From Escherichia coli (GTDB lineage: Bacteria; Pseudomonadota; Gammaproteobacteria; Enterobacterales; Enterobacteriaceae): 12,534 nt of DNA. The stretch is taken from assembly GCF_003334355.1 (NCBI RefSeq), contig NZ_QOWP01000053.1; one strand, written 5' to 3'. Made by a program: the position numbers and the translations under genes. Position 1 is the first letter of the stretch; every line of letters begins with the position of its first letter. Shown here piece after piece: positions 6,889 through 6,947 of the stretch. The notes beneath the pieces were generated by a model that did not search any database, was not told where the DNA came from, and worked only from the letters and a program-made list of their open reading frames with translations.

Positions 6889-6910
6889 AATGAATTTGAT
6901 AATCATTCTC
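6889..6910. promoter_or_regulatory. Fur-box-like sequence overlapping the putative mntH promoter
   Basis: TGAATTTGATAATCATTCTC resembles the GATAATGATAATCATTATC Fur consensus. A candidate promoter is -35 TTGATA (6896..6901), 17-nt spacer, -10 TAGCAT (6919..6924). Confidence 0.55.
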
Positions 6911-6925
6911 GTTTGGCATAGCATG

Positions 6926-6947
6926 AAACATAGCAAAGGCTATGTTT
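6926..6947. promoter_or_regulatory. MntR-type operator: perfect 9-bp inverted repeat
   Basis: AAACATAGC-AAAG-GCTATGTTT, a perfect palindrome 13 bp upstream of the mntH ATG. It matches the known MntR binding-site architecture for mntH. Confidence 0.75.

Follow-up and report, generated by a model that had tools for sequence, protein, structure and literature searches.

Which proteins act on the DNA upstream of mntH, and how are their sites arranged around its promoter? We addressed this question on a stretch of Escherichia coli DNA of 12,534 nucleotides (contig NZ_QOWP01000053.1), here called the window. A sequence-only reading of it had proposed that mntH is preceded by an operator for dual repression by Fur and MntR. 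We examined the motif scores of the region, its identity with E. coli K-12, its conservation and the literature, all of which agreed with a Fur and MntR dual-repression operator of mntH.

The mntH locus and its promoter

The segment 6600-7100 was found, with an identity of at least 95%, in 5425 of the 5426 complete E. coli genomes, and the features annotated beneath the match were nupC (divergent), a small ORF (given as ypeD or as 'hypothetical protein') and mntH. The window is E. coli chromosome, and the RefSeq annotation agrees with the sequence-only reading that the downstream gene is mntH. Alignment with K-12 MG1655 showed identity from 6883 through the mntH ATG and beyond, the only upstream differences being three substitutions at 6727, 6866 and 6881. 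Since both operator sites are identical to those of K-12, the published work on the K-12 mntH promoter applies to the window sequence. For comparison between species we collected the mntH locus from 80 other species of about 25 genera, all of them Enterobacteriaceae, and compared them in an alignment of the 220 bp that precede the ATG. The features of the region are listed in Table 1.

Table 1. Features of the mntH upstream region, in window coordinates
Feature	Position	Strand	Description
OxyR-like activator site (candidate)	6849..6885	.	ATAA-N7-CTAT-N7-ATCA-N7-CCAT; about -82 to -46 from the predicted start
ypeD	6890..6979	+	29 aa; RefSeq (K-12 b4819); runs over both the Fur and MntR operators and the -10 between them, and 20 nt into mntH
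Fur box (predicted)	6892..6910	.	GAATTTGATAATCATTCTC; 15/19 consensus positions; core TGATAATCATTCTC resembles the 7-1-7 motif
-35 hexamer	6896..6901	+	TTGATA; promoter scan; inside the Fur box; in 80/80 species
-10 hexamer	6919..6924	+	TAGCAT; promoter scan; 17-bp spacer in E. coli, 16 bp in most genera
MntR operator (predicted)	6926..6947	.	AAACATAGC-AAAG-GCTATGTTT; perfect inverted repeat; spans the predicted start site
Shine-Dalgarno of mntH	6949..6953	+	AGAGG; 6 nt upstream of the ATG; read from the sequence
mntH (regulated gene)	6960..8198	+	Nramp-family Mn2+/H+ symporter; 412-aa ORF; RefSeq annotation

The only sigma-70-like promoter found on the plus strand in 6640-6990 was TTGATA-17 bp-TAGCAT. 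Its -10 hexamer varied across species (TAGCAT, TAGCTT, TAATAT, TAACAT, TAGTTT and TAGCCT), with internal changes only, and this pattern, in which T1, A2 and T6 are always kept, is that expected of a true -10. Downstream of it, AGAGGCA in the Shine-Dalgarno region of mntH was kept across species in the Enterobacteriaceae alignment. The transcription start site is predicted at about 6930-6932, some 7 nt after the -10 and within the left arm of the palindrome. Relative to this predicted start, the MntR site lies at about -5 to +17 and the Fur 19-mer at about -39 to -21. The sequence-only reading had the Fur-like box directly upstream of the repeat and overlapping both the -35 and the -10. The box does contain the -35 and does lie upstream of the repeat, but 15 bp (6911-6925) separate the two, and the candidate -10, which ends at 6924 just before the palindrome begins at 6926, is placed in this interval, outside the box and between the operators.

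Several observations concern the surroundings of the locus. On the nupC side, two 20-nt direct repeats at 6686-6705 (AAAACGAGATCTGACACACA) and 6735-6754 (AAATAGTGATCTGTCATACA), which are 75% alike and 49 bp apart, lie near a promoter-like site of the minus strand (6734-6705); GTGA/TCAC-type half-sites are found in both of them and are reminiscent of the tandem CRP sites in CytR-controlled promoters. In the window, pdeA (ORF end 5372) is directly followed by the end of nupC (5422), whereas a copy of IS186/IS421 lies between these two genes in K-12 and in strain 510016 (4124-5236 of locus L001 and 3274-3501 of locus L086). The record NZ_CP070008.1, typed as an E. coli plasmid of 198 kb, includes a stretch 99.4% identical to the chromosomal nupC-mntH intergenic region, for which F-prime-like capture, misassembly and a mislabelled record are possible explanations; several further 'plasmid' matches were chromosome-sized records.

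Matches to the Fur, MntR and OxyR motifs

The Fur box was the top match to the Fur consensus GATAATGATAATCATTATC in the whole 12.5-kb window, and TGAATTTGATAATCATTCTC, the string by which the sequence-only reading had quoted it, corresponds to 6891-6910. A match to this consensus with at most four mismatches was obtained in 0.55% of 2000 first-order Markov simulations of 6664-6959, and the value for the whole window was 3%. A published genome-wide scan of K-12 (Chen et al. 2007, PMC2189734), run at a cut-off of 10 bits with a matrix derived from 24 proven Fur sites, gave mntH a Fur cluster of 19.9 bits, made of two overlapping sites over 25 bp and centred at -56 from the ATG; no more than 42 clusters, that of mntH included, had a site above 17 bits. 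Position -56 from the ATG is 6904 in the window, in the middle of TGATAATCATTCTCG. The Fur matrix score used here is this published K-12 value, carried over because K-12 is identical at the site, and our own test consisted of the consensus comparison and the simulations. Scoring with Fur and MntR matrices was the check put forward by the sequence-only reading, and the Fur site passes it. By its similarity to the 19-bp consensus, its overlap with a promoter element (the -35) and its score above the threshold of a matrix trained on proven sites in the published scan, the element is classed as a Fur box.

The palindrome is made of a left arm (6926-6934), the spacer AAAG (6935-6938) and a right arm (6939-6947), and the two 9-bp arms, AAACATAGC on the left and GCTATGTTT on the right, are exact reverse complements of each other. 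The bases and coordinates of the perfect repeat had been given correctly beforehand, and its distance of 13 bp from the mntH start holds as a difference of coordinates, but the nucleotides that intervene before the ATG at 6960 number 12. Of 5000 first-order Markov simulations of 6664-6959, 2.1% contained an inverted repeat with perfect 9-bp arms and a loop of at most 10 nt. Elsewhere in the window, perfect 9-bp inverted repeats with short loops occur only at 1892-1918, just after gltX, and at 11219-11242, just after glk, and these look like transcription terminators.

We then searched 17 kb of K-12 sequence around the other MntR targets named in the literature for the 18 arm positions of the palindrome. 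Matches with four mismatches or fewer (3-4 of 18) were found only at a distance of 46 bp before dps, over the 5' end of rybA/mntS, and at mntP, where two sites, 40 bp apart, are located about 360-420 bp upstream of the ATG; 0.06 such matches are expected by chance per 10 kb. A symmetrised matrix was made from these four sites (dps, mntS and the two of mntP), the mntH site being left out, and its consensus was AAATATAGCCTAGGCTATATTT. The score of 6926-6947 on this matrix was 28.7 bits while those of the training sites ranged from 23.9 to 28.7 bits; the next best position in the window scored 12.8 bits and the maximum over 300 simulated windows was 18.3 bits. The MntR part of the suggested matrix check was therefore passed as well, and the palindrome scores as high as true operators of the MntR regulon. 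It is classed as an MntR operator: an inverted repeat of ATAGC-type half-sites with a 4-bp centre, of regulon-like score on a matrix made without the mntH site, which overlaps the predicted promoter core and start of the manganese-homeostasis gene mntH. A literal string search of a collection of papers returned unrelated matches only for AAACATAGC and none for CATAGCAAAGGCTATG.

Two further half-sites were seen in the region. One, GCTATGTT at 6760-6767, is a half-site core identical to the right arm and belongs to a partly conserved block 160 bp upstream; the other, CATAGC at 6917-6922, overlaps the -10 and lies 12 bp before the CATAGC of the left arm. No second full MntR site was found on the matrix from either of these half-sites.

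The candidate OxyR-like site has four elements over 37 bp. Its agreement with ATAGnTnnnAnCTAT-N7-ATAGnTnnnAnCTAT, 13 of 20 specified positions, was reached in 17% of the simulations and is, taken alone, within chance. In 66 of 78 species, the best match to the OxyR consensus (13 to 16 of the 20 positions) was located at exactly the equivalent distance from the Fur core, and the conserved island 6860-6874 belongs to this site. The match in the single sequence is insignificant and becomes informative only because of this positional conservation. The architecture had been described as dual, for iron and manganese; its Fur and MntR sites stand, but the description is incomplete in that the OxyR-like candidate is a third part.

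Conservation of the sites and its possible causes

Comparison of the 80 species showed that the mean column identity to the window was 95.5% for the palindrome, 72% for the interval between the sites (6911-6925) and 46% far upstream (6740-6860). The mean for the Fur box was 92% over 81 sequences, and its core TTGATAATCATT was near-invariant. The left arm of the palindrome was identical in all 80 species and the AAAG spacer was present in 79. The right arm read GCTATATTT in 44 species, GCTATGTTT in 20 and one of three other variants in the remaining 16, and none of the right-arm changes was compensated in the left arm. The repeat, claimed as perfect, is so in the window, but its perfection is specific to a lineage and was seen in only 20 of the 80 species, which belong to Escherichia, Citrobacter, Salmonella and Kluyvera. 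The palindrome is conserved as sequence and not as base pairing.

Within E. coli, the 35 nt that contain the -10 and the palindrome (6919-6953) were 100% identical in 5207 of 5386 matching records, while the 65 nt obtained by adding the spacer between the Fur box and the -10 were identical in only 3335 of 5271. The differences among the aligned strains were mostly in 6911-6918. The conservation shows strong purifying selection on the Fur and MntR motifs at the DNA level.

Another explanation for the conservation of 6890-6979 is that selection acts on the small protein YpeD and not on DNA sites to which proteins bind. The frame is annotated in RefSeq, and a ribosome-profiling study detected ypeD at its start and stop codons and included it with the small ORFs that have homologues in Salmonella and Citrobacter; that study gave names only to ORFs for which a western blot showed the tagged protein, and ypeD was so named. 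At the aligned start position of ypeD, 69 of 80 species have an ATG. However, the length of the ORF from the aligned start ranged from 5 to 89 aa among the 80 species, the commonest length being 11 aa, and in Salmonella the frame ends earlier than in E. coli (25 aa instead of 29). An indel of 1 bp near 6916, between the Fur box and the -10, shifts the ypeD frame in most genera (to ALNIAKAIF) and leaves the operator DNA unchanged, while in some E. coli strains a TGG codon is changed to TAA or TGA and ypeD is cut to 8 aa. The conserved peptides of YpeD are the operators read in frame, MNLIIIL for the Fur box and KHSKGYV for the MntR box, and the ypeD ATG itself falls in the extended Fur site. 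We consider selection on YpeD a very unlikely cause of the conservation, and the apparent conservation of ypeD probably arises from the Fur and MntR operators that lie within its frame. This calls for caution when function is assigned to small ORFs in promoter regions on the basis of conservation.

The ypeD start at 6890 is upstream of the predicted transcription start, and since its translation has been reported, some transcript must begin further upstream. A model with one promoter does not account for this transcript, and the plus-strand scan of 6640-6990 identified no promoter for it. Translation of ypeD might act in cis, with ribosomes that cross the palindrome and the Shine-Dalgarno, stop 20 nt inside mntH, open a AAACAUAGC/GCUAUGUUU hairpin and couple or occlude the translation of mntH. 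We regard such an action as improbable; if it did occur, it would add a post-transcriptional layer in those E. coli lineages that have the 29-aa ORF, absent from those with the 8-aa one.

The inverted repeat could also be an RNA (or cruciform) hairpin of the mntH leader which controls translation or termination and is not a site for protein binding. When transcribed from upstream, the repeat folds as an 11-bp hairpin that ends a few nucleotides before the Shine-Dalgarno, and manganese-responsive riboswitches are described in the literature at other manganese genes such as mntP. However, the leader taken from the predicted start formed only a 4-bp stem, its fold being weaker than that of shuffled sequences (z = +1.19), and the longer transcript, begun at the start of ypeD, did not stand out from shuffled sequences either (z = -1.07). 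No compensatory change was found in the 80 species, in 60 of which pair 4 is a C·A mismatch, and the near-invariance of the AAAG 'loop' (79/80) would be unusual for a hairpin loop. An Rfam scan of the window returned three tRNAs only, the mntH leader and intergenic region being without a match, and no terminator-like site was found in the promoter region by a scan that included 6640-6990. With neither an Rfam match nor covariation, the leader is not classed with the Mn2+ riboswitches or leader RNAs (yybP-ykoY or any other Rfam family), and a role of the repeat as an RNA element is extremely unlikely. Lastly, AT-rich motifs such as Fur boxes arise readily in a region of 34% G+C (296 bp, 6664-6959), but a chance origin of both the palindrome and the Fur-like box, already infrequent in the simulations of this region (2.1% and 0.55%), is effectively refuted by the near-invariance of both elements in 80 species whose flanks diverge and by the recurrence of the palindrome motif at other MntR targets, and its probability is negligible.

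Control of mntH and comparison with known systems

The Fur and MntR operators of mntH are already known and belong to the textbook, and nothing in them is new. An abstract on this promoter reportedly describes a DNase I footprint over a nearly perfect palindrome, and the Fur site is said to have been localised there to 22 nt by titration. Reviews present the E. coli mntH promoter with separate MntR, Fur and OxyR sites, from which Fur and MntR repress independently. A published mntH-lacZ fusion was repressed by Fur, and the literature also reports the repression of mntH by MntR and its induction by peroxide via OxyR. Papers that cite Patzer & Hantke 2001 (J Bacteriol 183:4806) attribute to it the Mn2+-dependent binding of MntR at mntH.

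Taken with the results above, there is little doubt that the region is the E. coli mntH promoter-operator, in which a sigma-70 promoter is flanked and overlapped by Fur, MntR and OxyR-like sites. At sufficient iron, Fe2+-Fur would bind 6892-6910, probably as two overlapping dimer sites, and would exclude RNA polymerase by covering the -35 and part of the spacer; this repression would depend on TGATAATCATT in the Fur site. At sufficient manganese, Mn2+-MntR, a dimer of the DtxR family, would bind 6926-6947, from just past the -10 over the +1 and towards the Shine-Dalgarno, and would block open-complex formation or promoter escape. Each of the two would repress independently of the other. The OxyR-like site abuts the -35 and would most likely serve peroxide induction through recruitment of the polymerase. 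We infer the exact start site as well as this steric mechanism. The mntH promoter is a textbook case of the integration of iron, manganese and peroxide signals for manganese import, and its value here is that of a positive control, in which real operators were recognised from sequence alone.

Comparison with the K-12 mntH promoter-operator (Patzer & Hantke 2001) showed the same locus, with every base equal from the Fur box through the -10 and the palindrome to the Shine-Dalgarno. The Salmonella enterica mntH promoter (loci L012 and L013) has the same order and spacing of an OxyR-like site, a -35/Fur box, a -10, AAACATAGCAAAGGCTATGTTT and a Shine-Dalgarno, and its AAACATAGCAAAGGCTATGTTT is identical to the E. 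coli counterpart. Its Fur box, GCACTTGATAATCATTATC, differs from that of E. coli at the left end while the right half is a perfect match to the consensus. OxyR, Fur and MntR motifs in this promoter are credited to Kehres et al. 2000/2002 in a citing review.

The Fur-repressed promoters of fhuA, fepA, entC and ryhB share with mntH the presence of overlapping Fur sites on a sigma-70 element (PMC2189734). The mntH promoter differs from these canonical Fur promoters by its short cluster (2 sites, 25 bp) and by the site of a second, metal-specific repressor downstream.

At K-12 mntP, two MntR-type sites (3266-3287 and 3306-3327 of locus L083, in the segment 3266-3395) are followed about 50 bp downstream by a Fur-like box (3377-3395) with 14 of 19 consensus positions, and the published scan gave a Fur cluster of 22.8 bits at -300 of yebN/mntP (Chen et al. 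2007, PMC2189734). Since mntP has both MntR-type sites and a Fur-like box, the pairing of Fur with MntR is not unique to mntH.

The other E. coli operators of the MntR regulon, which citing papers credit to Waters et al. 2011, allow a last comparison. Those of mntS/rybA, mntP and dps share with mntH the half-site core ATAGC-N4-GCTAT and A/T-rich ends, and have 3-4 mismatches to the mntH palindrome over its 18 arm positions. The MntR site of mntH overlaps the predicted +1, as a repressor site does, whereas the sites of mntP are located far upstream, where MntR activates.
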